Assembly: GCA_038063055.1 (NCBI GenBank)
Contig: JBBTVY010000005.1
Location: 2,444 to 66,443 of the forward strand
DNA: 64,000 nucleotides
Direction of reading: 5' to 3'
From: Patescibacteria group bacterium
GTDB taxonomy: Bacteria > Patescibacteriota > Minisyncoccia > UBA6257 > 2-01-FULL-56-20
Part shown: piece by piece, positions 6,854 to 62,228 of the stretch
Numbering within the stretch: position 1 is the stretch's first letter
Layout of the letters: each line of letters starts with the position of its first letter
Translations under genes and position numbers: made by a program
The notes under the pieces: generated by a model
Databases searched by the model: none
Seen by the model: only the letters and a program-made list of their open reading frames with translations
What the model was told of the DNA's origin: nothing

Positions 6854-6882
6854 ATTCTAAATTCTAAATTCCAGATTCCATA

Positions 6883-7986
6883 CTAACCTGTCCAGTAGAA
6901 CGCGAGTACGCTGAAATCGTCCAAATTAATCTTATTGTCGACTTTTAAGTCCAGACTGGATGGCGGATCCGAACGATTATACCAGTAGGCCAGTATCGAA
7001 AAATCGACAATGTTGATTTTGCAATCACCGTTCAGGTCCCTGAACAAGCTGGAACAGGAAACCTGCTGTTTGGCGGTCACATTTTTGGTTCCGACAATAA
7101 AGTTAACAATATTTCCGTAACCGCTGGCTTCAAGATTTCCTATGGAAGCTTTTGATTTCGCCGAGTACGAGCCATAATCGAGAACGGTCGTGTCGAAATT
7201 ATATAAATAAACTCCGTTCTTGTCCGAAATTGTCTTGCCAAAAAAATTTGGACTGGAAGATATCGTTATGACAATATCGGATTGCGGCGAACTTTGGCCG
7301 AAAATAATTATATCGTCCCCTCTTTTCACTTCCTCTTTGTCGACCTTGATTGTGGGCGCTATAAAAATACCGGTAACGTTCATGGTTATCCCATAAATCA
7401 CGCTGACCGGAAAAGCAAGGAGGCTGGAACGGACGTCGTTTTTGTCTTCGCCATAAAAAGAAAAAATATAATTTCCCGCGGAAATATTAGATAAGGTTAT
7501 CTGAAACAAAGCGTCGCTTCCGGCGATTGTCGTCGCCGCAACCTGAGCGTCTTTAAGAAGAGTCACTTCGCTTGAAGGATAGGCTCTTCCTGAAAAAACA
7601 ACTTGCGTCGGTGAGATAAAATATCCTCCCCCGCCACCAACGCCGACAACTCCACCACCGCCTCCGCCGCCAACGGTGCACGCGGAGGTGTCGAATGTGC
7701 AATCGACTTTACATCCTAAAATTCCTCCGCTAAATCCCTGACTGACGCAAGATTGTCCGCCAAGCGCGGCATCATCGCATTGCTCGCCTGCATCCAATAT
7801 CGCGTTTCCACACACTGAAGGAATCGAAGCGCTGATGTTTACGGAAGCCGCGAAAACAACTTGGTTATAATTTAGAAAATAGTCCGCCAAAGGCGTATCC
7901 GCTTCCGACGGAAAAACCAAAAATAAAATCGAGGCGAAAAATATTATCAGGGAAATCAATAAAAACCTGGAATAATTATTTGTCAT
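6883..7986 (-). CDS. Secreted/membrane-anchored Cys- and Gly-rich protein with C-terminal type-I dockerin module
   Basis: N-terminal TM. Cys-rich block 'CGNAILDAGEQCDD'; poly-Gly tract. Two dockerin Ca-binding repeats 'DLNGDCKINIVDFSILAYWY' and 'DLKVDNKINLDDFSVLAFYW'. Confidence 0.6.
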   Translation of the reverse strand: MTNNYSRFLLISLIIFFASILFLVFPSEADTPLADYFLNYNQVVFAASVNISASIPSVCGNAILDAGEQCDDAALGGQSCVSQGFSGGILGCKVDCTFDTSACTVGGGGGGGVVGVGGGGGYFISPTQVVFSGRAYPSSEVTLLKDAQVAATTIAGSDALFQITLSNISAGNYIFSFYGEDKNDVRSSLLAFPVSVIYGITMNVTGIFIAPTIKVDKEEVKRGDDIIIFGQSSPQSDIVITISSSPNFFGKTISDKNGVYLYNFDTTVLDYGSYSAKSKASIGNLEASGYGNIVNFIVGTKNVTAKQQVSCSSLFRDLNGDCKINIVDFSILAYWYNRSDPPSSLDLKVDNKINLDDFSVLAFYWTG

Positions 7987-8120
7987 TTATTTGTTGAATC
8001 TACGGGAATTAAAATTTTATGGGTTTCCATATCTTTTATTTTATTCCTTAATTTTCAAGATGCCAAAGCGCCCGCTTGATTAATCCGGACTTCTGAAAAT
8101 CGGTCATTCTTTCAAGATTT

Positions 8121-9092
8121 CTACTCCTTGTTTTCTATTTTCATATATCTCTCAATAACTCGCTGGTTATATTTTTTTACACCCCTCGTGGCTATCCAGA
8201 ATATCAAAAGCAACAGAAGCACGATGGGGACGATAATCTGCCAGGTCACCACGAAAAAACCGATTTCACCGTTAACCTGTTTATTCATGTTCCCGCCGTA
8301 ATTCAAAGACAAAACAGCCCTGTAAAAGCCGAATCCGAAGCCGCCCCATCCCGCTGATTCCGGAGTCGCTCTTATTTCTTTTTGGGAACGCGGGAGTATT
8401 TCCGCCCCATATCTGTTCACCGAAAGAATGGCGCTGGTTATTCCGAATACGTTTTTTATTACTATCTTTCCGCTCGGTTTAAGGTACACGTTGCCCGTGT
8501 TTTTAAAAACTATGTTGAAATTATCGGGTATTCGACTGAAAAGCCTGCTCCCGTCGGCGGTGTCGAATTTGTCTATCAGCGCGGTTTCCTGAATCTGGCC
8601 CGAAACATTCAGATAAACCAATATGCCCGCCCTGGTGACTATCGACGTGCCTCCGCCGCTGTTGTCGGGGGGTGAAGTTCCCCACCAGATGACCGCGAAA
8701 TGCCCGCCCGGCGGGGCGTCTTCGGGTATCTTTAAAATGTACGGCACGTCTTTGGATTCCCCGGTTTTTAGCGGCACGCCGTTTTCAATTTTAAACCAGG
8801 AACTCAAATCGGTGCGCTCGCCGGCCAAAAATTGTTTCTCGCCGTTCGTTTCCGTAAATTTTTCAAAAGAAGGATAAAGGGTCTGCTTTTCTCCTCCTTC
8901 GTTCATTAAAAAAAGTTTTCCTTCGATAACGCTCCCGGGGTCAAGACTGAATTCCATTTTAGCCGGGCCGACTGTCAGCGCCCTGGAAACATTCGGCAAA
9001 AAACCGGCGAACGCCAACAATGTCACGAAAATCGCCGAAAGAAACTTATTCTTCATTATGAAAAGAATACCACCCGCGAAGAGATTTTTCAA
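8121..9092 (-). CDS. Surface protein with signal peptide, Ig-like/PapD-like extracellular region and C-terminal TM anchor. Candidate assembly chaperone (DUF916-like)
   Basis: Signal 'FLSAIFVTLLAFAGFL'; beta-rich 'MEFSLDPGSVIEGKLFLMNEGGEKQTL'; C-terminal 'IIVPIVLLLLLIFWIA' followed by a basic tail. Confidence 0.45.
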   Translation of the reverse strand: MKNLFAGGILFIMKNKFLSAIFVTLLAFAGFLPNVSRALTVGPAKMEFSLDPGSVIEGKLFLMNEGGEKQTLYPSFEKFTETNGEKQFLAGERTDLSSWFKIENGVPLKTGESKDVPYILKIPEDAPPGGHFAVIWWGTSPPDNSGGGTSIVTRAGILVYLNVSGQIQETALIDKFDTADGSRLFSRIPDNFNIVFKNTGNVYLKPSGKIVIKNVFGITSAILSVNRYGAEILPRSQKEIRATPESAGWGGFGFGFYRAVLSLNYGGNMNKQVNGEIGFFVVTWQIIVPIVLLLLLIFWIATRGVKKYNQRVIERYMKIENKE

Positions 9093-9110
9093 CCGAACGA
9101 TTGAACTGGT

Positions 9111-9776: not shown

Positions 9777-9914
9777 TTGATTGAATTGATTTAATCAATG
9801 ATAATATGATGCTTTTCGACTTGGGTAGATTATAACATATGAGGTTTTAAGAAGATGTGGATAACTCCAACAGGGTAATAGGGTTTTAGGGGTTAGGGTA
9901 TAGAGTATGCGGAT

Positions 9915-10274
9915 TTAGCGTTTATTTTTTAGTTTTTTAATTAAAACAAACAACATTTTTTGAATCTCTGTAAGTAAATTTCCGGCTTTTAAAACATCAA
10001 CTTCGGGGTAAATGCTTTTGATGAGAATAATTTGTGTTTCTAATTCTGCGGCCGAAGCATCTGCAACACTCAAAAATTGTAAATATTCTCCTAACCCATG
10101 CCTTTTATAGCCTTCCGCAATATTTGATGGTACAGAAACAGCCGATCGTCTTATTTGACTAACCAATCCATAAATTTCACTTTTGGGAAGTTTATTGCTT
10201 AAATCGTAAACCTCTTTTACTAATAAAATAGATTTCTTCCAAACTTCTAATTCTTTATAAGATTTTAAATACAT
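9915..10274 (-). CDS. Four-helix-bundle protein (23S rRNA IVS protein / Avd-like), second copy
   Basis: 'ELEVWKKSILLVKEVYDLSNKLPKSEIYGLVSQIRRSAVSVPSNIAEGYKRHG' matches the PF05635/TIGR02436 pattern. Confidence 0.7.
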   Translation of the reverse strand: MYLKSYKELEVWKKSILLVKEVYDLSNKLPKSEIYGLVSQIRRSAVSVPSNIAEGYKRHGLGEYLQFLSVADASAAELETQIILIKSIYPEVDVLKAGNLLTEIQKMLFVLIKKLKNKR

Positions 10275-10324
10275 TTGTATTATACCCCCTACCCTTTTAC
10301 CCTACTACCCTATAACCCTATACC

Positions 10325-13114
10325 CTAGTTACTAACACAGCTAAACGTAATCGTGTCCGCATAGACCCCGCCGGTTGCGCTTGCTCCTACTGTGGCTTTG
10401 TGGGTAACCACTACTTCCCTGTTGGTTACGGCGGCAGTTGAAGAAGCGAGAATCACCGTAGTCGTGGCAAGGCCTCCCACCGTGTTGCCGCTTTGGAGAT
10501 AGCGGATATTCAGAGTAAGCGTTCCTCCGCTCCCGGCTGTTGTCGTGGCTCCCTGAATTCCGTAACCGTCGGTATTCGCGGCAAGGGTCGCGGTGGCGTT
10601 AAAAGCGGCATCCGGCGATTTGATTAAGTAGTTGATTGTCGTGGACGCGTACAATCCCCCGCCGGTGGTACTGCTGCCGTTATCGTTGACATAAAGAACA
10701 CAGCCAAGCGCTCCGTCGCAAGACATGGAAGTCGATGCGTTGGGAGAAGAAGTGAAGATGCCAGTCGTGTCTATCGTGCCGAAATCCGTGCTCGAAGCGC
10801 TGGCGGAACAGGAAACGGTTGCAGTCGGAGTGAAAGATGCGACTGCGTAAACGGAATAAGTCGTTAAACCCGTTCCGGCGTCGCTTACTCTGAAATAATA
10901 AGTCGCCGAAGAGGCGTTGGAAGTGGACATAATTGAATATTCAACTTCGGTAAATCGGATTCCGCTCAGAAGTTCGGAGTTCGCCTGATTTCTGCTTGTG
11001 GTCGCCACAACTTCGGCGGCGTTGAAAATTATGTTTTCGTCGGTCGTTCCTCCGGTGGAAGTGGCGATGTTCGTGGTTGCCGTGCCATCGGCAACCAAAC
11101 TCGACGTGGACATTTGCCACTCTCTCGTGCCTGCGGTCGAAGTCGCCAGTTGCGTCCACGTTCCGGAAGTAGAGTTGGCCTGATATTCTATTCTGAATTG
11201 GGCCGAACTGGTGGCATCGCCCTCGTTTGAAATTTCAAAACGCAGGCGCTTGACGGTTCCGATTCCTTGTATCGACAACGAAGTGTCTTCGCTGGCCGCC
11301 GCCGTCGAGGTCGCTTCACTGCCGTCGTCGTTGCGCCAATGGTAGTGGATTTGGGTCATGTTGGCGGCAAGGATGCTGGTTTGGCCGTATATGTTATAGC
11401 TGGCGTCGTTAATGCAGCTGCTTGTGCACCGGACTGAATTGACAACACTAGCCGAGAAGCCGGCCGACGAAGTGGCTGAAAAGGACTCGCCATAAGTATT
11501 TTCTAAGGTATTCGGGAAGCTGTAACTCGTGGTCGCGTTGTTTATACCCAATTCGAGAAATTGGGCCGCGACACCGTTGCCGGAGCTGCTGTCGTCGTAT
11601 TCGCCGTCAAGCCAGGCCCATTTGGCCGTGGTTGATGAGTCGGCGAGGGTTGTATTTATGCTTGTCGTTGCAAAACTGGTTCCGACCGACATATTCGATT
11701 GCGCCAAAAAAGAAAGATAATTGTTAAGGTTGGCGTTCGCCACCGGAGAGTTCGTATGGTCATAGCTCCAAAAAAGTTTCATGCCGCGTATGCTTGTGGC
11801 GCCAGAAGTGCTGAACGCCGAACAAACTATTTTGTCGCCGCCCGTTGTGGTCGCCAAATTGGCGGCAACGTTCCAAACAGGAGTTGCGTAACCGGTGGTG
11901 TCGTTGGCGGGCGGCGTTTCGGTTATGGCGGTTGTCGTCAGGTTTGTGCAGGGCGTGCCAGGGCCGAGAGTCGCGTTCATACCCGGATTCGCGGTTGCGG
12001 TGAAATTTGTCCTGCCTAAAAGAAACGCGTTAGTTGATGAAGGAGAGGTTTCTGGAATATTTATCGTGGTAGTCGCCAGCAGCGTAGCCGTACTCGCGGT
12101 GTTGGTATTTTGCATTAGCCAAACCTGGATGTTTTTGCGGAGTTTCGAACTTGCGTTGAAATTGAAAGTGTATGTGGCGACTGCGACTGCGTTGGGGTTG
12201 CTTAAAGAATTACTACTTATACTTTGCATTTTAAAAGTGTGATTGCCGGAAGGAGAAGCATCAGCGGTTGTCGGACTATTCAACATTAAAACGCTGTAAG
12301 AATCCCCTAATTGCGCGAAAGTAGCGGCGCTTGTCGCCTCCGAATCCCATCCTACGCCGACCGTTATCGCCGTCGTAGTCGAAATCCTCGCCCTGAATTC
12401 GGCCCAAAATTGGTTCGAGGAACTCGCGCCAACGGAAAAAGTCGTTGTGGCGCCGCTTTCCGGCAAACCGAAATTGAAATTCGCCGAAGTTACCAGCGCC
12501 TTGCCCATCTGCGAGCTGGTGGCGAACACGAATCTATAGTCGGTGTTTACCTGCGTGGGGGCAAACGGGTCATAGTCATAAGTAATAATAAGTTTTGCGC
12601 TTTCCGCGGACCGCGTGGGACCGGTAATTTTCGTGGTAAATATCATCGCGTAAGTTCCGCTGGCGTTGCCGATTAACGTTTGCATGGCGCTTGTCGCGTC
12701 AAGCCGAAAAGCAATCCATCTGTTCTCGGCGCTGTCGGTCAAAGTGCTCGGACAAGTCAAACTCTGGGCGATTCCGCCCTGAACGTTCAAAGTAAATGTA
12801 CAGGCCGAAATGCTTGCGGTGCTTGGGTGCGTATTATAAGAAATATACGCCGAACGGATTGGCTGGGAGGTGGGAACCATATCCGGAAGCGCGATGACAA
12901 ACGCGTAAGTCGACGTTACTCCGTTTGCGATGGGGGTCGTGGAAATAATCGAACCGATAAAAAACTCGATTGTCTTGGTTTTTGCGGCGGCTTCGGCGAC
13001 TTGAACCTGAAGAGTTAGGTCGCGCGATTTGAAACTCGATAAAAAATCAACCGGCGCGGGAATGGCGATAGTGGAAATCAAAAGCGCTACCAGAAATTTT
13101 CTTTTGGTATTCAT
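10325..13114 (-). CDS. Giant (929 aa) secreted T/S/A-rich adhesin-like protein ending in an SCPU/Csu-pilin-like domain
   Basis: Signal peptide 'LVALLISTIAIPAP'. C-terminus 'VSCSASASSTDFGTIDTTG...GGVYADTITFSCVSN' is paralogous to the C-terminus of 9111..9776. Confidence 0.6.
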   Translation of the reverse strand: MNTKRKFLVALLISTIAIPAPVDFLSSFKSRDLTLQVQVAEAAAKTKTIEFFIGSIISTTPIANGVTSTYAFVIALPDMVPTSQPIRSAYISYNTHPSTASISACTFTLNVQGGIAQSLTCPSTLTDSAENRWIAFRLDATSAMQTLIGNASGTYAMIFTTKITGPTRSAESAKLIITYDYDPFAPTQVNTDYRFVFATSSQMGKALVTSANFNFGLPESGATTTFSVGASSSNQFWAEFRARISTTTAITVGVGWDSEATSAATFAQLGDSYSVLMLNSPTTADASPSGNHTFKMQSISSNSLSNPNAVAVATYTFNFNASSKLRKNIQVWLMQNTNTASTATLLATTTINIPETSPSSTNAFLLGRTNFTATANPGMNATLGPGTPCTNLTTTAITETPPANDTTGYATPVWNVAANLATTTGGDKIVCSAFSTSGATSIRGMKLFWSYDHTNSPVANANLNNYLSFLAQSNMSVGTSFATTSINTTLADSSTTAKWAWLDGEYDDSSSGNGVAAQFLELGINNATTSYSFPNTLENTYGESFSATSSAGFSASVVNSVRCTSSCINDASYNIYGQTSILAANMTQIHYHWRNDDGSEATSTAAASEDTSLSIQGIGTVKRLRFEISNEGDATSSAQFRIEYQANSTSGTWTQLATSTAGTREWQMSTSSLVADGTATTNIATSTGGTTDENIIFNAAEVVATTSRNQANSELLSGIRFTEVEYSIMSTSNASSATYYFRVSDAGTGLTTYSVYAVASFTPTATVSCSASASSTDFGTIDTTGIFTSSPNASTSMSCDGALGCVLYVNDNGSSTTGGGLYASTTINYLIKSPDAAFNATATLAANTDGYGIQGATTTAGSGGTLTLNIRYLQSGNTVGGLATTTVILASSTAAVTNREVVVTHKATVGASATGGVYADTITFSCVSN

Positions 13115-29305: not shown

Positions 29306-30727
<1,422 letters not shown>

Positions 30728-30804
30728 ATTTCCCCTAAATTATAAGACTTTTTTAATATTTTCAAATTCTATTTTCTATTTGCTACTTTCTAGATTCTAG
30801 TTTT

Positions 30805-35314: not shown

Positions 35315-35405
35315 AATGGGCGAGAATCTAGAAGCTAGAAAATGGAATCTAGAAACGATTTAACTCTCGTATTATAACCTAATTCAGATAAATTTATCAA
35401 CTTGA

Positions 35406-42804: not shown

Positions 42805-42813
42805 CCATCTCAA

Positions 42814-43056: not shown

Positions 43057-43091
43057 TTCAATAGCCAATTTGGGCGTCCCGCCAGCGGCGG

Positions 43092-43125
43092 GATGCGATT
43101 GGCCGCTCCGCCACCGACGCATTCA
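43092..43125. repeat. Partial direct repeat (~31 bp, 2-3 mismatches) of the tRNA-Tyr 5' half (42775..42806)
   Basis: 'gatgcgattggccgctccgccaccgacgca' versus 'gatgcgattggccgctccgccacccacgca'. Confidence 0.75.
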
Positions 43126-43208: not shown

Positions 43209-43571
43209 CTAATTGTTTTCAGAACCAGATATCTTTTCCTTCTTTTCCTCGATTGCGGACGGAGAATCTTCAGCCAAATCTTTGAAATCTATCTTTGGTT
43301 TGCCGTTGCCATTAGGCGAAACTTTTTTGAGCTTGTCGTTGATGAAATTGTCCACCTTCATAAGAACGACTTTCATTTTCCGCAGGAATTTAGTCAAAAA
43401 ACCGTTGAAAGCGGCGTCTATTTTTTCCGGAATTTCCGAAGAAGAAAAACGTTCAAAAAAATCAGGTTTGTCCGAAAATTCTTCATCGACGCGCGGTAGC
43501 GAACGGACAACAAGATAAAGCATCGTTCCGAGAGACGCCATCAAAATCGTTGTTAAAATGAATTGGAGCAT
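43209..43571 (-). CDS. Hypothetical small membrane protein
   Basis: N-terminal TM 'ILTTILMASLGTMLYLVV'. Confidence 0.4.
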   Translation of the reverse strand: MLQFILTTILMASLGTMLYLVVRSLPRVDEEFSDKPDFFERFSSSEIPEKIDAAFNGFLTKFLRKMKVVLMKVDNFINDKLKKVSPNGNGKPKIDFKDLAEDSPSAIEEKKEKISGSENN

Positions 43572-43704
43572 GATTACTAAAATTTCTAAGCACTAATATC
43601 TAATTTCTAAATAAATTCCAATGTCTTAAAATTACAAATGTTTGAGAAATTGAAATTTGTGACTTTGTTTAGAATTTCGCGATTAGAATTTAGGATTTTA
43701 TAAA

Positions 43705-44938: not shown

Positions 44939-44985
44939 TGGTTACTAATTTACAGATTTTTACGAATATACGAATAGATTTTATT
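44939..44985. repeat. Truncated copy of the 78-bp palindromic 5'-UTR element, directly upstream of the rpsB start
   Basis: 'ggttactaatttacagatttttacgaatatacgaata' has 2 mismatches against 50621..50657. Confidence 0.7.
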
Positions 44986-45081: not shown

Positions 45082-45609
45082 TCAGAACTCTATTCCGTAT
45101 TTCGCGAGCTCGCCGTCGTTGAAGGGATGTTTTATTTCCTTCATTTCGGTCACCAGATTGGCAATATCAACGAATTCCTGCGGTGCGTTCCGTCCGCTCA
45201 AAATGAGCAAATTTTCTTTTGGATAATCCTTTATGGCCTCGAGAACACGCTCAGCATTGAGAATCCCGATTGAAACGGCGACATTGATTTCGTCAAGAAC
45301 TATCAACTGCCATTTTCCCGAAGCCGCCTCTTTTTTAAAAAACTCCAGCGCTTTTTCCGCCGCCTTCCGGTGTTCTTCGCGGGGCAATTTGTCGCCGAGT
45401 ATTCCGACGAACCCAAGACCCATTTTTACAATCTTAAATCTTAAATCATCAATCTTAAATCTTTCTCCGAACTCGTCTTCGCCTGAACGCCACGGACCCT
45501 TGATGAACTGAATCATCAAGGCGTTTTTGCCTCTGCCGATAACACGCACCATCTGCCCCAATGAAGCGGTCGTTTTTCCTTTACCATTCCCTGTAAATAA
45601 TAAAATCAT
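45082..45609 (-). CDS. ATP:cob(I)alamin adenosyltransferase (CobO/BtuR family)
   Basis: 'FTGNGKGKTTAS', 'QFIKG', 'GE', 'LDE', 'SGR', 'KHPF' in E. coli BtuR order. Contains an in-frame (AATCTTAAATC)x3 mini-repeat. Confidence 0.75.
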   Translation of the reverse strand: MILLFTGNGKGKTTASLGQMVRVIGRGKNALMIQFIKGPWRSGEDEFGERFKIDDLRFKIVKMGLGFVGILGDKLPREEHRKAAEKALEFFKKEAASGKWQLIVLDEINVAVSIGILNAERVLEAIKDYPKENLLILSGRNAPQEFVDIANLVTEMKEIKHPFNDGELAKYGIEF

Positions 45610-50237: not shown

Positions 50238-50618
50238 TTACCATATTTCGAACAAATATTCCCCGCCGACTTTTTTCTTGCGCGCGTCGCGGTCCGCCAA
50301 AATTCCCTGGGTCGTGGAAAACATGCCAAGCCCGTATCCCTGCTTCACTTTCCTGACTTCTCCGCTTCTGACGTAAATATGGCGGCTTGGACGGCTTATT
50401 ATTTTAAAATCGTTGAATGATGAAGAATTGTTTTTGTAATTAATTTTTATTTCGATGAAATTTCTGTTTCCCACCGTTTTTTTCTGGACATCCTTCAAAT
50501 ATCCGTTGGCGGCGAGAATTTTTGCCACCTCGAAATCAAAATTAGAAAAAGGAGTTGAAAAATTTTCCTTTTTCGCGTTGACTGCGTTTTTAATTTTTGC
50601 CAAAAGGTCGTAGTACAT
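50238..50618 (-). CDS. rpsH: 30S ribosomal protein S8
   Basis: S8 family pattern and operon position. Confidence 0.9.
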   Translation of the reverse strand: MYYDLLAKIKNAVNAKKENFSTPFSNFDFEVAKILAANGYLKDVQKKTVGNRNFIEIKINYKNNSSSFNDFKIISRPSRHIYVRSGEVRKVKQGYGLGMFSTTQGILADRDARKKKVGGEYLFEIW

Positions 50619-50625
50619 TGGGTTA

Positions 50626-50703
50626 CTAATTTACAGATTTTTATGAATATACGAATAAAAATTTTGTTTATTTATAAAATTCGTATATTCGTACTGATTC
50701 GTA
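50626..50703. repeat. 78-bp palindromic element in the rpsH 5' UTR, identical to 53996..54073
   Basis: 'ctaatttacagatttttatgaatatacgaataaaaattttgtttatttataaaattcgtatattcgtactgattcgta' contains the inverted repeat gaatatacgaata/tattcgtatattc. Confidence 0.85.
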
Positions 50704-50713
50704 CTTCGTAAAA

Positions 50714-50899
50714 TCACCATGAAGCTTTTTTAACGCCCGGTATCTCGCCCCGGCTGGCCATTTCCCTGAAACAAATCCTGCACAGGCCAAAAGTTCTCAT
50801 ATATCCCCTTTTTCGTCCGCACCGAAAACAGCGCCTTACGGACCTTGTGGAAAATTTTGGAGTTTTTTTGCTCCGGGCTATTACTGAAAGTTTTGCCAT
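50714..50899 (-). CDS. rpsN: 30S ribosomal protein S14 (type Z, zinc-binding)
   Basis: 61 aa with '[23 protein letters not shown]'. Confidence 0.9.
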
Positions 50900-50900
50900 T

Positions 50901-51772: not shown

Positions 51773-51818
51773 GTTAGTTTTTCTTAACGAACGTAAGTGA
51801 GTTTAGAAACAACTTACA

Positions 51819-51929
51819 CCCCGCACCTTTGCTGCAAAAATTCAGAATGCGACCCAAAATAAAGCGGAGCGATTCGCCTGCGGCTTTGTTTTGATTTGTT
51901 TTCATAATCTTTGCCATAAAGGTGCGGGG
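51819..51929 (-). repeat. 12-bp perfect inverted repeat with an 87-nt loop in the rplN-rplX spacer (long structured 5' UTR of rplX)
   Basis: 'ccccgcaccttt' at 51819..51830 pairs with 'aaaggtgcgggg' at 51918..51929; the 193-bp spacer is otherwise atypical in this compact operon. Confidence 0.55.
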
Positions 51930-51965
51930 TTTAGAACTTGTAATTCGCTTCGCTCATAACAATTT

Positions 51966-53304: not shown

Positions 53305-53988
53305 TTATGAACTTTTAACTTTTGAAAATACTTCGCCCTTATATATCCAAACTTTTATTCCGATGGTTCCGTAAGTGGTAAAAGCTGTTGCCGTCCCGTA
53401 ATCAATATCGGCGCGAAGATTTTGCAAAGGCAAAGCGCCTTTCTTCAGCGATTCGTCTCTGGCGATTTCAGCGCCGCCAAGGCGGCCCGCCAAAAGAATC
53501 TTTGCTCCCTTTACTTCCCTGTTCTGCACCATCTGCTCCATATATTTTTTCATGGTCCTGCGGAAAGGCATGCGTTTTTCCAAATCCCAGGCTATTTGTT
53601 GAGCCACGTAAGGCGCTGCGATTTCAGACCTCTTGAGTTCTTCAATATTGACGCTCACGTTGACCCGACCCTTGGCTTCTTTTCCTTTTTTGAGAGAATC
53701 TTCCAAAGCTTTCGTGAACTCTTCGATTCCTTTTCCGCCGCGTCCGATTATGAATCCGGGCCGCGCCGCCTTGATGAAAACTTTCAGGTTGTTTATGGTT
53801 CTTTCTATTTCAACCGAAGCGATGCCGGCCATATTCAGTTTCTCGCGTATAAGTTTTCTGATTATCTCGTCTTCGGCGAGATATTTTGGGTAAGTGGAAC
53901 GTCCTCCCTTGTCCGGCAAAAACCAGCGAACCGGCCAGTTCTTTATTATTCCTAAACGAAAAGATTGTGGATTTATTTTCTGTCCCAT
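53305..53988 (-). CDS. rpsC: 30S ribosomal protein S3
   Basis: 'MGQKINPQSFRLGI' and KH domain. Confidence 0.9.
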   Translation of the reverse strand: MGQKINPQSFRLGIIKNWPVRWFLPDKGGRSTYPKYLAEDEIIRKLIREKLNMAGIASVEIERTINNLKVFIKAARPGFIIGRGGKGIEEFTKALEDSLKKGKEAKGRVNVSVNIEELKRSEIAAPYVAQQIAWDLEKRMPFRRTMKKYMEQMVQNREVKGAKILLAGRLGGAEIARDESLKKGALPLQNLRADIDYGTATAFTTYGTIGIKVWIYKGEVFSKVKSS

Positions 53989-53995
53989 GGTGTTG

Positions 53996-54073
53996 CTAAT
54001 TTACAGATTTTTATGAATATACGAATAAAAATTTTGTTTATTTATAAAATTCGTATATTCGTACTGATTCGTA
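53996..54073. repeat. 78-bp palindromic element in the rpsC 5' UTR, identical to 50626..50703
   Basis: Exact 78/78 match by eye. Confidence 0.85.
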
Positions 54074-54083
54074 ATTTCGCATA

Positions 54084-54935: not shown

Positions 54936-55031
54936 AATCGTTTTGTGGTATCGATACCAATATACGTAATGATGCTAATTATACAAATACAATTCGTATC
55001 ATTAGTAAATTAGTATATTCGCATCGATACA

Positions 55032-56194: not shown

Positions 56195-56854
56195 TCATTT
56201 TACTCCTCGCTGCCGATTGTAATGCTTGGTTATCGACGGAACGGCTTTCTGGTCTATGAAAACGTTTTTGTGTTTCATTATTTCGTAAACATTAAGCGAT
56301 TCCGGACTTATTACTCCTGCCTTTTGAAGGTTAGCGGCCGCCCTGAAAATTTTTTTATTCTCCATATCCGGAACGAAAAGAATGTCGTACTTATTTGAAT
56401 TTTTCCGGAGTTTAACGAGATTTTTCAAAAGCTCCGCGAGGATTTTTGTTTTAGCCGATTCTATTTCCAGCGTTTCAAAAAATTTGACTTCGCCGTCATT
56501 GAGTTTTTTCGAAAGAAGGCTCATAAGCGCGATGCGGCGCATTTTTTTGTTCACTTTTTGCGAATAATCCCTCTCCTTGCTCGGTCCGTGGGCTTTGCCG
56601 CCGCCCTTCCAGAGCGGAGAGCGTATTGAGCCGTGACGGGCGCGTCCGGTTCCTTTTTGCCTCCACGGTTTCTTGCCTCCTCCTCTGACTTCGCCTCTTC
56701 CTTTGGCGTGCGCCCAGGGACGGCGCAAATTGGCGAGTTGCGCGCTGAGAATCTGGGCGATGAGAGATGCTTTCCACGGCGCGCCGAAAACCTTCTCCGG
56801 CAAATCTATCTCGCCGACTTTTTCATTTTTCCAGTTGTAGATATTCGTTTTCAT
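56195..56854 (-). CDS. rplD: 50S ribosomal protein L4
   Basis: L4 family pattern; start at 56854 (MKTNIYNW) preferred over the listed 56917, which would run into a palindromic spacer. Confidence 0.8.
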   Translation of the reverse strand: MKTNIYNWKNEKVGEIDLPEKVFGAPWKASLIAQILSAQLANLRRPWAHAKGRGEVRGGGKKPWRQKGTGRARHGSIRSPLWKGGGKAHGPSKERDYSQKVNKKMRRIALMSLLSKKLNDGEVKFFETLEIESAKTKILAELLKNLVKLRKNSNKYDILFVPDMENKKIFRAAANLQKAGVISPESLNVYEIMKHKNVFIDQKAVPSITKHYNRQRGVK

Positions 56855-56929
56855 GAAAATTGATTTATGATTTAAGATTTTGGATTTAAGAATAATTATT
56901 TCGTGTTCATAATTCATAAATCATAATTC

Positions 56930-57502
56930 TTAAATCTTTTGTATCTCAAGTAGTCCTCCGCGGGCTCCCGGAACGGCTCCTTTTATCATTAAAATGTTTT
57001 TATCCACGTCGACTCCGGCTACGGTGAGATTTTTGACGGTAACGCGGTCGCCGCCCATCCGTCCGGCCATTTTCCTTCCCGGAAAAACTTTTTGCGGAGC
57101 GGTTGAACCTATCGAACCGGGGGCGCGCAAGCGGTTCTTCTGCCCGTGCGTTTTTGGACCACCATGGAAACCGTGCCTTTTGACTACGCCCTGGAATCCG
57201 CGCCCCTTGGAAACTCCGCTTACTCTGACAATGTCGCCTTCCTTGAAAACGGAAATGTTAACAGCATCGTCAACTTTGAACTTTTCCGCCAGAGGCGGAT
57301 CCGCCTTCGGCGGAGAACTTTGAACTTTGAACTCTCGCTTTCGTTTGCCGAAAGCGAGCTGGACGGCTTCATAACCGTCTTTTTCTTTTGTGCGGACGAG
57401 AGTTACCTTGTTTTTGGAAACTTCAACCAAAGTCACCGGAATGACCTTGTCTTCTTTCCAAATCTGGCTCATGTTCAGTTTTTTGCCCAATATGAAAGAC
57501 AT
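56930..57502 (-). CDS. rplC: 50S ribosomal protein L3
   Basis: 'MSFILGKKLNMSQIW'; internal start preferred. Confidence 0.85.
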   Translation of the reverse strand: MSFILGKKLNMSQIWKEDKVIPVTLVEVSKNKVTLVRTKEKDGYEAVQLAFGKRKREFKVQSSPPKADPPLAEKFKVDDAVNISVFKEGDIVRVSGVSKGRGFQGVVKRHGFHGGPKTHGQKNRLRAPGSIGSTAPQKVFPGRKMAGRMGGDRVTVKNLTVAGVDVDKNILMIKGAVPGARGGLLEIQKI

Positions 57503-57590
57503 CTTGGTTTTCTGCGAAAATCGGTATGTATACGATTTGGCGCATGCCGGAATATTGTATACAAACAAACGGCTCCCGTCAATATGGGTA

Positions 57591-57634
57591 ATAAAAAAAA
57601 TGAATCGCCGGGCTTCCCGAAGGAAGTCCCGGCT
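57591..57634 (-). terminator. Rho-independent terminator on the minus strand, downstream of the inserted 107-aa gene
   Basis: 'gccgggacttccttcgggaagcccggc' followed by 'gattcatttttttt' on the minus strand. Confidence 0.7.
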
Positions 57635-57722
57635 TGATGCTTGGAGATATGTTGATGTACTATAGTATGTCGACTCAATGCCCTCCTCGCTTTTGCATTA
57701 GCCCTTTTTGCCGGATGCTATC

Positions 57723-58046
57723 TTAGAAAGCGTCGATGGCACGAGCTTTTTTCCTTCTCGCCTCCTGGTATTCAGAGGTGCACCGGGTTTTTTCGGCAGC
57801 GATATGGGTGAATAAGTTTTCCCGCCCAGGCAGACCTTGATCCCTGAATTTTTGCTCGAACACATTATGAATGGCGTCATGATTTGCCGGAATGACGGAT
57901 GACTGAACAATGTCCGCCAATGCTGAAAGCACAGCCACATCAATCGTTCTTGTGTTGTGGTCTCTTCTGCCGGATTGGTTGACCCAGTTCGACGTGCTGT
58001 TGACTTGTAACACTATTGCTTCGTGAAACGGTTTCGGCGCTGACAT
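57723..58046 (-). CDS. Hypothetical 107-aa protein inserted between rpsJ and rplC; atypical composition; candidate autoregulated DNA-binding protein
   Basis: Not lysine-rich. Preceded by a canonical AGGAG Shine-Dalgarno (58056..58060) that native genes lack, and by the 18-bp palindrome 'catggcgaatttgccatg' (58069..58086). Has its own terminator. Confidence 0.5.
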   Translation of the reverse strand: MSAPKPFHEAIVLQVNSTSNWVNQSGRRDHNTRTIDVAVLSALADIVQSSVIPANHDAIHNVFEQKFRDQGLPGRENLFTHIAAEKTRCTSEYQEARRKKARAIDAF

Positions 58047-58125
58047 AGCAGGAAACTCCTAATATTCACATGGCGAATTTGCCATGATTATTAAAACACT
58101 AGAAACTAAAAACTACAAGCGTAGA

Positions 58126-58250
58126 TTTTCGGTTTAAGAGAAGCTATCGCAGACACAAAAAGCTTGGTCTCGCGGAGCGAGTTTTTGTGTCGAGATGCAA
58201 GAATGCCCATCCGCTGGAGATGGGCAATTCTGGTTCTCTTAAACCGAAAA
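58126..58250 (-). other. Structured non-coding leader: 17-bp perfect inverted repeat enclosing two nested hairpins
   Basis: 'ttttcggtttaagagaa' at 58126..58142 pairs with 'ttctcttaaaccgaaaa' at 58234..58250. Inner stems gcccat/atgggc and gacacaaaaa/tttttgtgtc. Confidence 0.55.
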
Positions 58251-58262
58251 TTGGAGCCCCCT

Positions 58263-58592
58263 TTAAGCCATTTTTATCTCTATATCAACACCGGCGGGAA
58301 GATTCAGGTTCGAGAGCGATTCTATTATCTTCTGGTTTGGATTGGAGATGTCTATCAGGCGCTTATGTATTCTCAGCTCGAATTGTTCGCGGGAGTCCTT
58401 ATGGACGAAAGTCGAGCGGTTGACGGTAAATCTTTTTATTTCCGTCGGAAGAGGAATCGGGCCGGTAATTTTGGCATCGTTTCTTTCGGCGGCTTCTATA
58501 ATCTGGCGCGCCGAATTGTCTATGAGCTTGTGGTCGTAGGACTTCAAGCGTAAGCGGAGTTTCTGGGGAAGCTCGTTGTCTTTCTTGGCCAT
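58263..58592 (-). CDS. rpsJ: 30S ribosomal protein S10
   Basis: S10 family pattern; follows tuf. Confidence 0.9.
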
Positions 58593-58704
58593 GTTCGTTT
58601 TACTTCATCAGCGAATAACGAATAATTTTCGAATTTACGAATGGATTTCGACTTTGCTCATCATAAATTCGTATATTCGTAATGGATTCGTTATTCGTTG
58701 ATGG

Positions 58705-59904: not shown

Positions 59905-59969
59905 TTTTTAAAATTTATACTTTTTTATTTATTCCTAAGTTTTTCGACCTAGTTTTCGACAGTTCGGTA

Positions 59970-59997
59970 ATTTTAACGCCAAACCGAGAATTGTCAA
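59970..59997 (-). promoter_or_regulatory. Candidate sigma70-type promoter for tuf in the fusA-tuf spacer
   Basis: Minus-strand TTGACA (59992..59997), 16-nt spacer, TAAAAT (59970..59975). Confidence 0.5.
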
Positions 59998-60029
59998 CCC
60001 CCGTGCCATAACGGCGATGGGACATACCG

Positions 60030-62135
60030 CTACTTCCTTTTACCCTCGATTATTAATTGCGCGATATTGTTTGGTGTGGGTTCATAACTGCTAAATTCCA
60101 TGCTAAAACTGCCTCGTCCCTGCGTCAGCGAGCGGAGCGCCGTGGCGTAACCGAACATTTCCGACAGCGGGACTTTGGCGTCTATAACTTTGATATTGGC
60201 CCTGTCGCCGATGGTTTCTATTTTGCCGCGCCTGGAATTTATATCCCCCGTTGTTTCTCCGAGAAAGTCCTGCGGGATTATTACCTGTGTTTTCATTATC
60301 GGTTCGAGAATAACGGCTTTGGCGCGCTTGGCGGCTTCCTGAAAAGCCATTGAACCGGCGATTTTGAAAGCGGCCTCCGAAGAGTCCACTTCATGAAATG
60401 AACCGTCGTAGAGCGACACTTCGACGTCAACCACCGGATAGTGCGCGAGCACGCCTCTGTCCAGCGCTTCCTTTACTCCTTTCTCGACGGCGGGAATGAA
60501 TTCGTTCGGGATTATTCCTCCTCTAATCTTGTTAACGAAAACAAAACCCTGTCCGCGCTCGAGCGGCTTTACTTTCAGCCAGACATGGCCGTACTGGCCG
60601 CGGCCGCCGGACTGGCGGATATATTTGCCTTCGGCTTCGGCTTCGCCGCTGATTGTTTCCTTGTATGCGACCTGCGGGCGGCCGACATTGGCTTCGACGC
60701 CGAATTCCCTTTTCATTCTGTCAACGATTATTTCCAAGTGAAGTTCGCCCATGCCGGAAATTATCGTCTCTCCGGTTTCAGGGTCGCCGGCGACGCGGAA
60801 AGTCGGGTCTTCGTCGGCCAGGCGGTGCAACGCGGTACCCATTTTTTCCTGGTCGGCTTTTGTCTTGGGTTCGATTCTGATGCCGATAACCGGTTCCGGA
60901 AATATTATTCTTTCCAGAATTATCGGGGAATCTGGATTGCATATGGTGTCGCCCGTACCCGTGTTTTTCAATCCGACTATGGCGGCTATTTCTCCGGCGT
61001 AAACTTCTTCCACTTCTTCGCGCTGGTTGGCGTGCATCCTTACGATACGCCCGACGCGCTCCTGCTCGCCTTTTGTGGCGTTCAAAACGTAAGAGCCGCG
61101 CTTAATAACCCCCGCGTAATTCCTGAAATAAGTCAGACTGCCGACGTAAGGGTCGTTCGCTATCTTGAAAGCGAGAGCGGTGAACGGTTCTCCGTCATCC
61201 GCCTTTCTGAAAATTTCTTCTCCTGTTTTTAAATCGATTCCCTTGACCGGTGGCAAATCCGAAGGCGAAGGAAGATAATCGACTACCGCGTCCAGAACCA
61301 GCTGAACTCCTTTATTCTTCAGCGCCGAACCGGTGAACACCGGAATTATTTTGTTTTCGATAGTCGCTTTTCTCAGGGCGCGCCTCAGGTCGTCGATGTG
61401 AATTTCTTCTCCGGCAAGATATTTTTCCATGAGCGCGTTGTCGTTGTCGACAACTGCTTCAATCAGTTTCCGGCGATATTTTTCCATATCCGCTTTCATT
61501 TCTTCCGGAATCGGTATTTCAACGACGCGCTCGCCGTGTTCTCCCTGGAATTCGAAAGCTTTCTTTTGCAATAAATCGACGAGCCCGCGGAAATTTGATT
61601 CCGAGCCGATTGGCAGCTGGACTGGAAAAGCGCAGTTGGTCAGGCGCTCTTTTATGGAAGCCAGGCTTTTTTCGAAACTCGCGCCCATGCGGTCCAGTTT
61701 GTTTATGAAGCAGACCCTCGGAACTTTGTATTCTTCGGCGTAATGCCAGTTCGTTTCCGACTGCGGCTCCACGCCGGCGACGCCGTCGAAAACCACCACG
61801 GCTCCGTCGAGAACGCGCAACGAACGCTTTACTTCAACGGTGAAATCGATGTGACCCGGAGTGTCTATGAGGTTTATGCGGTATTCGAAATTTTTGTCGC
61901 CGTCGCGGTAAGTGGGAACCCAGAAAGCGGTTGTGGCCGCGGCGGTAATGGTAATGCCGCGTTCCCTTTCCTGCTCCATCCAGTCCATGACCGTGTCGCC
62001 CTCATGCACTTCTCCGATTTTGTGCGAAACGCCGGTGTAAAAAAGAACGCGTTCGCTGACGGTGGTTTTTCCCGCGTCAATGTGGGCGATTATTCCTATA
62101 TTCCTTGTTTTTTCGATGGGATATTGTCTGGGCAT
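60030..62135 (-). CDS. fusA: Elongation factor G
   Basis: 'AHIDAGKTT', 'DTPGHIDF' and EF-G domains. Confidence 0.95.
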
Positions 62136-62228
62136 AATCTTAAAGAATCTAGAATCTAGAAAATAGAATCTAGTAGGATTTTTTTAAAACTAATCTGAAT
62201 TCTGGATTCTAGTTTCTGATTTCTGAAT

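Follow-up and report, generated by a model that had tools for sequence, protein, structure and literature searches.

Heptanucleotide arrays in the spacers and reading frames of a groundwater Patescibacteria genome: candidate slippage-generated simple-sequence repeats

Short repeats in bacterial genomes are known in several guises. Simple-sequence contingency loci underlie phase variation in Haemophilus, Neisseria and Campylobacter. In the inc18 plasmid pSM19035, the ribbon-helix-helix protein omega acts both as a repressor and in binding the centromere, and it recognises WATCACW heptads in runs; its operators are contiguous 7-bp heptads without spacers, direct and inverted, with several units near promoters. 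Rickettsia palindromic elements (RPEs) lie in frame in genes as net insertions of 100-150 bp and diverge like ordinary sequence. Simple repeats with a 7-nt unit have been described from cyanobacteria, Xanthomonas and Beggiatoaceae (PMC4679880, PMC4692102). Mrazek 2007, in the summary given by PMC4679880, found heptanucleotide units to make up the most frequent class of long simple-sequence repeats (SSRs) and proposed polymerase-linked slippage. Repeats of Xanthomonas and Nostoc prefer four units (Rehm et al. 2015, PMC4692102), with a G-quadruplex offered as the cause (PMC4692102), and TAACTGA repeats were proposed to be translation-related leader sites (MacGregor 2015, PMC4679880); in Beggiatoa nearly all of the latter run forward, with one indirect repeat among 170 sets (PMC4679880). 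Loss of the anti-Shine-Dalgarno (anti-SD) motif has already been described for a subgroup of Parcubacteria (PMC9297842).

Here, we analysed a 64,000-nt stretch (the window) of a contig from a Hainich groundwater Patescibacteria (CPR) genome, which is reduced, and found period 7 to be the only tandem-repeat period in excess. Four arrays score 12 or more at period 7, against 0.0 in 20 dinucleotide-preserving shuffles and 0-1 at other periods. The intergenic share of array bases is 49%, with 11% expected; GAWTCTAGA occurs 6 times against 0.76 expected, and TAGAANNTAGAANNTAGAA, at two mismatches or fewer, 21 times against 0.14. A sequence-only reading of this DNA had pointed out the arrays and proposed k-mer and tandem-repeat enrichment as a check; within the window, the enrichment of the units and their preference for intergenic over coding DNA confirm a real, non-random class of repeats. 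Its label for them, GAWTCTAGA-like, fits one unit family but not the several others: the window holds at least four, unrelated to each other, with (TAGAAWN)n as the main one. The five core positions of this TAGAA family are conserved and positions 6-7 vary between neighbouring units as well as between genomes, in a scan that had itself selected on the core. Arrays are typically ~31 nt long with a mode of ~4.5 units, rarely exceed 5.5 units, and group in length at n + ~0.5 units, which we read as slippage seeded by 3-4 nt of microhomology. Coding arrays are perfect and intergenic ones degenerate, both orientations relative to the downstream gene occur, the genes next to arrays share no functional theme, and of 78 arrays a single one falls within the conserved coding sequence of a ribosomal protein or elongation factor.

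With Tandem Repeats Finder (TRF) and a self-shift scan, eight of the ten places singled out earlier proved to hold true, correctly placed tandem 7-nt arrays. The other two, 62697-62796 and 43560-43704, are instead related imperfect palindromes of ~120 nt made of AAATTC/GAATTT words. One covers the rpsL-rpsG spacer and the 3' end of rpsL (62697..62828, minus strand; inverted repeat I2, 52-nt arms, 71% complementary; fold z = -1.7), the other the spacer from tsf to the next ORF (43572..43704, minus strand; AAATTCT/AGAATTT words; -19.5 kcal/mol, z = -2.0), and the two align in blocks. Among true arrays, adjacent inverted pairs are frequent; they occupy the spacers from stop to start codon, where they form imperfect hairpins. 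TAGAA-type pairs reach z = -2.0 to -3.6 against shuffled sequence, and TACGAAT-type pairs go as low as -6.3. The rpsG-fusA spacer (62143..62226, minus strand) is fully taken up by two inverted TAGAA-type arrays (62198-62226 and 62143-62177; in TRF 62194-62229 and 62144-62173; -18.9 kcal/mol, z = -2.0), the 3' arm ending 8 nt upstream of the fusA ATG. A second hairpin (56855..56938, minus strand; z = -2.3) consists of inverted arrays at 56861-56887 (to 56888 in TRF) and 56906-56938 (I6, I13, I18) and ends 6 nt upstream of the rplD ATG; as the true rplD start is ATG 56854, with L4 homology beginning at residue ~22, both arrays assigned to rplD belong to the rplC-rplD spacer. TACGAAT heptads build the hairpin leader before rpsC (53986..54076, minus strand; families D7, D8, D11), of which a 96% identical copy precedes rpsH (50616-50706) and a partial one rpsB (44940-44976); hairpins related to it lie at 58593-58704 and 54936-55031. 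Folds of this type give z = -4.0, -5.9 and -6.3.

The (TRGAATN)6 array before the 23S-rRNA-IVP ('Avd-like') gene (6839/6845..6882, minus strand; 5-6 units) occupies the entire 29-nt spacer and continues into the first codons of the gene. Its distant inverted partner, sharing an exact 13-nt inverted match read from the sequences (GAATCTGGAATTT), is an AAATTC-type array of 4.1 copies (6431..6459, minus strand; TRF period 7, family D6) that forms codons 2-11 of ORF 5572-6462 (PNSRFKISNSQ). Five degenerate TAGAA-type heptads, which fall under the TRF threshold, separate the ftsE ATG from a promoter-like site (35322..35356, minus strand). This array matches the fusA leader at 83% identity over 41 nt (family D6), is unstructured on its own (z = -0.3) and is likely a 5' UTR, judging by the promoter-like TTGATA-18-TATAAT before ftsE (35400..35371; 11/12 matches). 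The earlier placement of the arrays in 5' UTRs has this promoter-like support only at ftsE; most of the others lie in intercistronic spacers. Nor are only two reading frames involved, as had been thought: arrays also occur in ORF 5572-6462 and in rplC, where a short (GAACTTT)2.7 array (57315..57333, minus strand; TRF, I12) sits in an in-frame segment with two GC-rich hairpins.

A perfect (TAGAAAG)4.6 array (30679..30713, minus strand; sense CTTTCTA; TRF (AGAAAGT)4.6 at 30680-30711, 100% matches) makes up codons 6-16 of the prepilin-like leader of a 473-aa LVIVD protein, which reads MKKPNILLSTFYFLLSRRFG followed by QSALE. A degenerate (TAGAANN)5 array (30765..30799, minus strand; in TRF 30767-30803, 5.3 units, 80% matches) lies upstream of both the TATAAT box of this gene and its start codon. 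Together they form the inverted repeat I5 (33 nt, 85% complementary; 5' arm 30765-30799, 3' arm 30679-30713), which encloses the start codon. For 30670-30810 as a whole, the fold reaches -27.9 kcal/mol (z = -3.6), matched by none of 200 shuffles. Since the (GAAAGTA)4.6 tract lies within codons 6-16, one unit gained or lost would turn the gene off; the exact same protein is present on 4 contigs, with no variant among them.

But what about arrays in housekeeping genes? In fmt, a perfect (AAATTCC)4.4 array (2972..3002, plus strand; 100% matches in TRF) encodes NSKFQIPNSK in frame. At this position, Fmt site 1, orthologous arrays are found at the DNA level in six lineages, the window and five others, all perfect or nearly so at ~31 nt and 4.4-4.7 units, with differing unit sequences: AATTTCC (4.4 units) in lineage L166, and AAGTATC, AAGTGTC and AAGTGGC in L168, L171 and L170, respectively. 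The identical A-to-T change in every unit between the window and L166 shows concerted evolution of the array. A heptamer-compatible signature is present at the site in 58 of 109 Fmt homologs, and by alignment the segment is only 1 aa longer than in Fmt chains of the PDB. No variant Fmt alleles were seen, one identical protein occurring on 5 contigs, and the 90%-identity cluster is a single sequence without a variant. In distant Fmt proteins, the TACGAAT unit family is found in frame as NYELRI. The in-frame AAGATTT-type array of cobO (45430..45463, minus strand; 4.9 units in TRF) spans codons 49-60 (FKIDDLRFKI), counted from the start at 45609, and adds only 3 aa relative to Salmonella CobA. 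In 120 cobO homologs every heptamer-compatible window falls at one site, that of the window's array, and the site behaves in the same way as Fmt site 1. Length classes of +/-7 aa are almost absent at these coding sites, and the lineages keeping the arrays at fixed site and length have Fmt proteins only 57-73% identical. This retention of arrays at the same codons across many related lineages, perfect while the unit changes, is new and unusual.

In 2.2 Mb of related loci, period 7 again ranks top, with 42 arrays against at most 16 for any other period (46 against at most 15 in a second scan). The distribution is sporadic: 19 of 167 loci of relatives carry at least two arrays, and the nearest relatives mostly lack them altogether. 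The TAGAA core family recurs at non-orthologous positions (in L086 before rpsL; in L166; in the def-fmt spacer of L170), and one locus, L011, combines at least six unit families within 22 kb. No copy-number variation was seen across 4-6 independent assemblies.

We see an even chance that the arrays are heptanucleotide simple-sequence repeats, generated by slippage and evolving in concert, with side effects on RNA structure. That they belong to one class with the cyanobacterial STRRs, the Xanthomonas/Nostoc GGGAATC repeats and the Beggiatoa TAACTGA repeats, here in Patescibacteria (Parcubacteria-type), we hold with equally balanced confidence. Slipped-strand misalignment in a 7-nt register, or conversion, would give rise to the arrays and keep them homogeneous, probably helped by exchange between arrays of one unit family, and they would settle at ~4-5 units (~31 nt). 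They would persist only where harmless, in stop-to-start spacers and in permissive protein segments with all three frames open, and may have no dedicated function. Their chief molecular effect would be structural: adjacent opposite arrays could make the spacer transcript (or DNA) fold back on itself as a long imperfect hairpin, with 5-bp paired cores and 2-nt mismatches. At the RNA level, such hairpins could shape mRNA processing, mRNA stability or access to the start codon, as in the pilin-like gene, whose start codon would sit in the hairpin loop. The earlier suggestion that arrays within coding regions are prone to slippage is supported: the sequences are of the slippage type, and the fmt array changed in every unit between two lineages. 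However, several observations argue against slippage. Decay should be even over all seven positions, and the TAGAA core is conserved with positions 6-7 variable; its recurrence at non-orthologous loci of relatives hints at a sequence-specific constraint. From free slippage in neutral DNA one would expect the reverse of perfect coding and degenerate intergenic arrays, the constancy of site and length leaves a homogenising route without length change unexplained, and the lack of copy-number variation in 4-6 assemblies also speaks against it.

The conserved core with its two variable positions per heptad, found in several related genomes at different loci and in both orientations, would suit cis-regulatory operators, cooperatively bound by a trans-acting protein that controls the flanked genes or organises DNA. 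The two arrays on either side of the pilin-like gene's TATAAT box and start codon, the ftsE array just downstream of a strong promoter-like site, and a constant length of ~4-5 units, as for a defined oligomer, are in line with this. We nevertheless regard it as unlikely: with several unrelated unit families per genome, a single binder cannot explain all arrays, many of which lie in intercistronic spacers without a promoter-like site or inside ORFs, the flanked genes lack a functional theme, and the window's small ORFs yielded no ribbon-helix-helix protein or any other candidate for a binder. The arrays could instead be leaders for initiation on a ribosome that works without SD: standby or enhancer sites, as the sequence-only reading had proposed for them and MacGregor 2015 for TAACTGA repeats (PMC4679880). 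S1, a cold-shock protein or a similar factor would then bind them. Its premise is borne out, as an SD core (GGAG, GAGG or AGGA at -20..-4) precedes only 2 of 71 window genes, compared with 9.5% of random 17-mers. Arrays end 0-8 nt before the start codons of the IVP gene, fusA, ftsE and rplD in the window, and likewise before rpsL and tuf in L086, fmt in L170, tuf and others in L011 and fusA in L040. Loci with at least two arrays are almost confined to SD-poor genomes of the sample (10/47, against 0/13 SD-rich and 1/8 intermediate), and SD-poor Beggiatoaceae leaders, including those of ribosomal-protein operons, provide a published parallel (PMC4679880). Still, we judge this role rather improbable. 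About 60 of the 71 genes (~85%) have neither SD nor array, so that arrays hardly compensate for the missing SD, and among the 47 SD-poor loci 37 carry at most one array; the SD-poor association is confounded by phylogeny. Units differ from gene to gene, and so does orientation, with a GA-rich array before the IVP gene and UC-rich ones before fusA and ftsE. Several leaders are stable hairpins rather than open sites, and other arrays lie upstream of the likely promoter, as in the pilin-like gene, or inside ORFs. Because arrays fill whole stop-to-start spacers in a compact genome, abutment on the start codon is expected from geometry alone. SD-less initiation would then be a genome-wide trait independent of the arrays, which would not replace the SD.

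Could perfect in-frame or promoter-proximal arrays be contingency loci, kept because selection favours frequent ON/OFF switching, in the pilin-like adhesin gene, as the sequence-only reading had suggested, and perhaps in fmt? Loss of fmt bypasses the need for deformylase. Each 7-nt unit gained or lost in an ORF shifts the frame, coding arrays are perfect, like those of classical contingency genes, a surface protein has the LVIVD array in its leader, and perfect arrays lasting at fixed fmt and cobO sites are hard to explain neutrally. Yet no variant alleles were seen, with identical proteins on 4-6 contigs and a single sequence in the Fmt 90% cluster; all six lineages have 4.4-4.7 units, a constancy not usual in contingency tracts, which tend to differ widely in length; four units are short for high switching rates; and fmt and cobO are housekeeping genes, which makes this quite improbable to us. 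Small mobile palindromes (REP/BIME-, MITE- or Rickettsia-RPE-like) entering spacers and, in frame, genes would account for dispersed families with shared sequence (D6-D8, D13), for the hairpin architecture of many arrays, and for unit families yielding the same peptides (KFQIPNS, KFEIRNS, FKIDDLR, NYELRI) in unrelated proteins. This origin, however, seems very improbable, as there is no net insertion at Fmt site 1 relative to non-CPR Fmt and little in cobO (+1 and +3 aa), arm lengths vary, and neither defined ends, target-site duplications nor an associated transposase accompany the arrays. Overall, the sequence-only interpretation is partly supported.

Finally, we would like to place these arrays, read as slippage-generated repeats, among the known systems. 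Like contingency loci, the LVIVD gene carries perfect repeats of a non-multiple-of-three unit at the 5' coding end or promoter of a surface-protein gene; unlike there, the arrays have 4-5 units of constant length, without copy-number variation in assemblies, and also occupy housekeeping genes and operon spacers. With omega operators they share contiguous 7-bp heptads in direct and inverted orientation; they differ in being chromosomal and genome-wide, in their multiple unit families per genome, in lying often far from promoters or in genes, and in that no cognate binder was found among the window's small ORFs. They resemble RPEs as hairpin-capable repeat DNA that is translated where conserved proteins permit it and kept in orthologous places, but at ~31 nt they cause hardly any gain in length, and each remains perfect within itself even as its unit changes. 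The TAACTGA repeats of marine Beggiatoaceae, some Cyanobacteria and Bacteroidetes are similar in placing 2-6 heptamers a few nt upstream of starts (PMC4679880), in ribosomal-protein operons, in leaders without canonical ribosome-binding sites and sometimes inside ORFs (PMC4679880); their unit differs, both orientations are common and inverted pairs frequent only here, and conserved coding-site arrays are not reported there (PMC4679880). The long SSRs of Mrazek 2007, the STRRs of Calothrix/Nostoc and the GGGAATC/GGGGAYT repeats of Xanthomonas and Nostoc are alike in that 7-nt units are the dominant long-SSR class with a sporadic distribution, in excess in non-coding DNA, mostly where neighbouring ORFs run in the same direction and no more than ~50 nt from a start or stop codon, at about four units and with occasional inverted pairs of stem-loop potential. 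Unlike the STRR and GGGAATC repeats, those of the window belong to a reduced CPR genome and have A/T-rich units without G-tracts, so that the G-quadruplex explanation for the four-unit preference cannot apply. They also comprise several unit families, the main one a 5-nt core plus two variable positions, and are kept at orthologous in-frame sites of housekeeping genes, something not described in those papers (PMC4692102).

Are the heptamer arrays real, and do they share a common design? The observation made in the sequence-only reading is confirmed, and its interpretation is supported in part. Eight of the ten places listed there are true tandem 7-nt arrays; 43560-43704 and 62697-62796 are instead related imperfect palindromes of shared words. 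Period 7 accounts for 17 of the 68 Tandem Repeats Finder rows in the window, and a self-shift scan of the window found four period-7 arrays with a score of at least 12, compared with 0.0 in 20 dinucleotide-preserving shuffles and with none or one for each other period from 2 to 13. The predicted intergenic enrichment was also borne out: 202 of 412 array bases (49%) are intergenic versus 11.1% expected, with coding regions taken from the gene calls of the contig itself, transferred to the window, and the arrays adjoin stop and start codons. The main family, (TAGAAWN)n, has a five-base core. Pairs of TAGAA within 35 nt are spaced by 7, 14 or 21 nt only, runs of at least three consecutive TAGAA heptads number seven versus 0.1 in shuffles, and the three-heptad pattern matches 21 times versus 0.14 expected; positions 6 and 7 vary between adjacent units in a scan that itself selected on the core. 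Further unit families in the window are AAATTCC/GGAATTT, AAGATTT and TACGAAT. A scan of viral contigs for (TAGAANN)4 gave at least 120 matches, many in giant-virus MAGs, and was uninformative.

Inverted array pairs are frequent and occupy complete stop-to-start spacers. The pair in the rpsG-fusA spacer folds at -18.9 kcal/mol (z = -2.0 relative to shuffled sequence), and that in the rplC-rplD spacer folds with z = -2.3. In the pilin-like gene, which encodes a 473-aa LVIVD protein, an upstream array (30766-30798) is 85% complementary over 33 nt to an array in the coding sequence (30680-30712); the 53 nt separating the two hold a TATAAT box and the start codon, and for this region the fold energy is -27.9 kcal/mol (z = -3.6). 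Single arrays, such as those in the ftsE 5' UTR and in the leader of the IVP gene, showed no structure on folding. Judged by G·U strand asymmetry, most window spacers fold slightly better in antisense and the relatives are mixed, which does not settle which strand's RNA folds. A promoter-like TTGATA-18-TATAAT lies upstream of the ftsE array, and its position implies a leader of about 50 nt that contains the array; no promoter-like site was found upstream of fusA. Of all the arrays, just the one at ftsE, and possibly those of the pilin gene, have a promoter-like neighbour. Rfam, searched at gathering thresholds over the whole window, returned three tRNAs only, and no array or leader matches a known RNA family. 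Elsewhere, ftsH and the ORF that follows it are separated by a tRNA-Ile (38061-38134, minus strand) whose anticodon, UAU, is unusual in bacteria, and the 524-nt 'spacer' after tRNA-Tyr (42290-42813) contains an apparent second, uncalled GIY-YIG-like frame (…YTGITSDLRRRLDEHNSG…) beside the called GIY-YIG ORF 42814-43122.

Structures are also found in the ribosomal-protein operons. The TACGAAT family forms strongly folding leaders before rpsH, rpsC, rpsB, rpsJ and rpsS. Both rpsH (50616-50706) and rpsC (53986-54076) are preceded by a 91-nt leader, with 96% identity between the two and a partial copy before rpsB (44940-44976); this leader contains a perfect 12-bp hairpin (GAATATACGAAT / ATTCGTATATTC) made of TACGAAT heptads. 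Related, highly stable hairpins are found in the tuf-rpsJ spacer (58593-58704, z = -5.9) and the rplB-rpsS spacer (54936-55031, z = -6.3); neither these nor the rpsH, rpsC and rpsB leaders have an Rfam match. The 193-nt rplN-rplX spacer (51773-51965) holds a palindrome with 51-nt arms (51815-51865 / 51883-51933); the palindrome includes the word CCCCGCACC, which recurs before rplF. Two further features of these operons deserve mention. An uncalled gene for a Zn-ribbon type S14 of about 61 aa (50715-50900, minus strand) lies in the 282-nt rplE-rpsH 'gap', and a 107-aa ORF without a Pfam match (57723-58046, minus strand) is inserted between rpsJ and rplC; its flanking spacers (57503-57722 and 58047-58262) measure about 220 nt, and in one of them there is a perfect inverted repeat of 18 bp (58125-58142 / 58234-58251).

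Several arrays lie inside genes, and arrays also misled the gene callers. L4 homology starts at about residue 22 of the called rplD protein, which puts the true start at ATG 56854; the call is overextended by 21 codons into the array hairpin (56854-56917). Both arrays described as preceding rplD therefore belong to the rplC-rplD spacer. Similarly, the cobO call lacks 19 codons (45552-45609) and with them the P-loop (GNGKGKTT), which lies upstream of the called start, so that cobO spans 45082-45609 and its array falls in codons 49-60. The pilin-like gene carries its (GAAAGTA)4.6 tract (30680-30711) in codons 6-16, where it translates to part of a 20-residue prepilin-like leader, MKKPNILLSTFYFLLSRRFG, followed by QSALE. 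The two reading frames first noted are not the only ones with in-frame arrays: ORF 5572-6462 carries another in codons 2-11 (6431-6459; peptide PNSRFKISNSQ). In rplC (57272-57333, minus strand), an in-frame L3 segment (EFKVQSSPPKADPPLAEKFKV) consists of two short GAACTTT arrays around two GC-rich hairpins, and the L3 of the window lacks about 20 residues of the usual loop relative to homologs. The 'Avd-like' genes at 6476-6853 and 9915-10274 encode four-helix-bundle proteins of PF05635 (23S_rRNA_IVP), and a search of the window detected no reverse transcriptase; these genes therefore do not speak for a diversity-generating retroelement in this window. G-rich period-8 TAGGGTNN / TTAGGG-like repeats flank the second IVP gene (9915-10274) at 10289-10332 and 9880-9914.

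Could the arrays stand in for Shine-Dalgarno (SD) motifs, as had been suggested? The absence of SD motifs itself is confirmed: GGAG, GAGG or AGGA occurs at -20 to -4 in 2 of 71 genes, which is under the 9.5% background, and A-rich regions lie upstream of window genes. The lack of SD is an already published trait: Tsurumaki et al. 2022 (PMC9297842) describe a Parcubacteria subgroup whose 16S rRNA has no anti-SD motif. The heptamer repeat class, too, is known in kind. A role of the arrays as SD substitutes is not supported, because most genes have neither an SD nor an array, most SD-poor relatives have fewer than two arrays, the orientation relative to the downstream gene is variable, and several leaders are structured. 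Among the related loci, those rich in arrays belong almost exclusively to SD-poor genomes: at least two arrays were found in 10 of 47 SD-poor, 1 of 8 intermediate and 0 of 13 SD-rich loci, leaving 37 of the 47 SD-poor loci with fewer than two.

The relatives also show how far the system extends. The window is the reverse complement of 3076-67075 in a contig of 194,945 bp (ENA ERZ1292629), which comes from the 0.1-µm fraction of groundwater taken at well H43, Hainich. Its genes for type IV pili and its numerous unknown surface proteins place it in the CPR, and ribosomal protein L30 is missing between S5 and L15, a Patescibacteria/CPR feature. The best EF-G matches, one from the genome collection (73% identity) and one from the metagenome collection (84%), are both uncultured Patescibacteria. 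At NCBI the Fmt protein goes under 'Patescibacteria group bacterium', and the labels on close homologs of Fmt and CobO read Liptonbacteria, Harrisonbacteria, Jorgensenbacteria or Paceibacterota. A cyanobacterial origin, considered in view of the STRR and HIP1 repeats, is ruled out, as HIP1 occurs once versus about one expected and gene content, L30 absence and closest relatives point to Patescibacteria. Around fusA, period 7 is the commonest repeat class, with 42 arrays in 1.34 Mb of genome loci (other periods at most 16) and 46 in 0.84 Mb of metagenome loci (other periods at most 15). Array length has its mode near 4.5 units (49 arrays), with a steep drop beyond 5.5, unlike periods 6, 8 and 9, whose copy number declines monotonically. 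The distribution is sporadic. A Yanofskybacteria locus (L011) carries 20 arrays in 22 kb, so that almost no spacer of the str, S10 and spc operons is without one, and L124, L111, L010 and L040 are also array-rich; most of the closest relatives (L079, L006-L008, L087, L088) have zero arrays at their fusA-centred loci. L011 also has an in-frame (AGCCATC)4.4 array (10214-10244) near residue 75 of its EF-G gene, the only one of 78 arrays within conserved ribosomal-protein or elongation-factor coding sequence. The closest relative, L086 (84% EF-G identity), has a TAGAA-type array before rpsL and none in the rpsG-fusA spacer, and L166 and L170 carry TAGAA-type arrays at other loci again, which indicates that the unit family is conserved across the clade and the intergenic array positions are not. 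In L170, an inverted array pair stops exactly at the fmt ATG. A 0.8-kb 'insertion' that the fusA of relatives seemed to carry was a tblastn artefact, the match continuing into tuf.

What surprised us most was the behaviour of the arrays inside fmt and cobO. The fmt array of the window (2972-3002; here Fmt site 1) is (AAATTCC)4.4 and encodes NSKFQIPNSK. At the DNA level, perfect or near-perfect arrays of 31-33 nt occupy the same place in five other lineages whose Fmt is 57-73% identical: (CAATTTC)4.4 in L166, (AGTATCA)4.6 in L168, (TAGCCAC)4.4 in L169, (TGGCAAG)4.7 in L170 and (AGTGTCA)4.4 in L171. Copy number thus stays at 4.4-4.7 units across six lineages. Between the window and L166, an identical A-to-T change is present in all four units, and in a common phase the units of L168, L171 and L170 read AAGTATC, AAGTGTC and AAGTGGC; these changes shared by all units imply concerted evolution. 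The translation of a perfect heptamer array matches at least 8 of the 10 residues of the site in 58 of 109 close homologs (3.5% for control segments), and most control matches mark a second fmt hot spot about 78 residues upstream, which the DNA of L169 and L170 confirms. Sampling more broadly, with 150 representatives of 50%-identity clusters, still gave 10 that match at site 1 and 0 control segments that do. CobO behaves likewise, with 152 of 152 heptamer-compatible windows from 120 homologs at one site. Across these lineages, perfect arrays sit at the same codons, at two sites in fmt and one in cobO, and hold their length while the unit changes in every copy at once. The coding arrays use the same few unit families as the intergenic hairpins (TAGAAWN, AAATTCS, TACGAAT, AAGATTT). 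Units, and hence peptides, are common to CobO arrays, Fmt arrays and intergenic families: KFQIPNS from AAATTCC, KFEIRNS from AAATTCG, FKIDDLR, which is also present in a distant Fmt protein, and NYELRI of the TACGAAT family.

How could such arrays arise? Slipped-strand misalignment would generate and homogenise them, and they would persist in spacers and permissive protein loops; inverted pairs would give rise to intercistronic hairpins, which may influence how mRNA is processed, how stable it is or how accessible the start codon is. A mobile palindromic element of the REP, MITE or RPE type is not supported, since there is no net insertion with defined ends: the fmt site is only one residue longer than in solved Fmt structures (PDB chains) and therefore not an insertion, 119 of 120 homologs have it at the same length, and the cobO site adds a net three residues. 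By inspection, a G-quadruplex seems not to fit, as the units contain no G-tracts, and neither does intrinsic DNA bending, as a 7-bp period is out of phase with the helix. Phase variation of the pilin-like gene, the switch proposed earlier, is mechanistically possible; no variant alleles at array genes were found in four to six assemblies, all of which carry identical alleles.

Homogenisation over evolutionary time is evident. Simple slippage leaves four points unexplained, however: that the TAGAA core is conserved next to two positions that vary, that identical unit families turn up again at other loci and in other genomes, that coding arrays are perfect compared to the degenerate intergenic ones, and that homogenisation occurs at fixed length inside essential genes; length classes differing by 7 aa, as expected from in-frame slippage of three units, are essentially absent at the coding sites. 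These four points leave room for another reading, which we regard as rather unlikely: that arrays of about 31 nt are actively maintained, and not just tolerated, in a large clade of Parcubacteria, implying either a dedicated process that writes or homogenises them or a nucleic-acid reader with a 7-nt register. A Pfam scan of the 10 small or unknown window ORFs yielded no candidate for a heptad-binding protein, and ORF 58263-58592 is S10. If true, active maintenance would make the arrays a bacterial system of a new kind, in which coding microsatellites evolve in concert.

Either way, the arrays form intercistronic hairpins in the ribosomal-protein operons of a streamlined, SD-less genome, and those in frame in fmt and cobO amount to a long-running natural experiment on concerted evolution with frame and length constrained, which could expose the homogenising mechanism. 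The CPR clade offers an unusually clean system for asking why heptamer repeats have seven bases and about four units, and as its units are A/T-rich, a G-quadruplex explanation of the four-unit preference cannot apply there. On the practical side, arrays corrupt gene calls, as the wrong starts of rplD and cobO illustrate.

Finally, we would like to compare the arrays with known repeat systems. Full-text literature searches returned nothing on such repeats in CPR genomes or in fmt. As relayed in PMC4679880, Mrazek 2007 found heptanucleotide units to be the commonest long simple-repeat class in repeat-rich prokaryotes, and a polymerase-footprint slippage model has been put forward for them. With this LSSR/STRR class, the window arrays share head-to-tail 7-nt units longer than chance, the dominance of period 7 over 4-12-nt units and a non-coding excess near gene ends. 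In Xanthomonas and Nostoc, GGGAATC-type repeats occupy non-coding DNA between co-directional ORFs, with a preference for four units and now and then an inverted pair (PMC4692102); the authors stated that no detailed literature on heptameric repeats existed. The four-unit preference (Rehm 2015) is matched here by the mode of 4.5 units. The TAACTGA repeats of Beggiatoaceae lie directly upstream of start codons in SD-poor leaders, with S1, cold-shock proteins or CsrA as proposed readers (MacGregor 2015, PMC4679880). However, the units differ, being TAGAAWN, AAATTCC, AAGATTT and TACGAAT here, and repeats of TAACTGA have a forward orientation, whereas start-proximal arrays occur in both orientations here. 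The arrays in the pilin-like gene, fmt, cobO and at 6431-6459 share with SSR contingency loci a unit not divisible by three within an ORF, and contiguous 7-bp units in direct and inverted order are shared with omega-like ribbon-helix-helix operators. Membership in the heptanucleotide simple-repeat class is the best-supported reading of the heptad arrays; what appears to be new is the CPR setting, the spacer hairpin architecture and, most of all, that arrays at orthologous coding sites evolve in concert.
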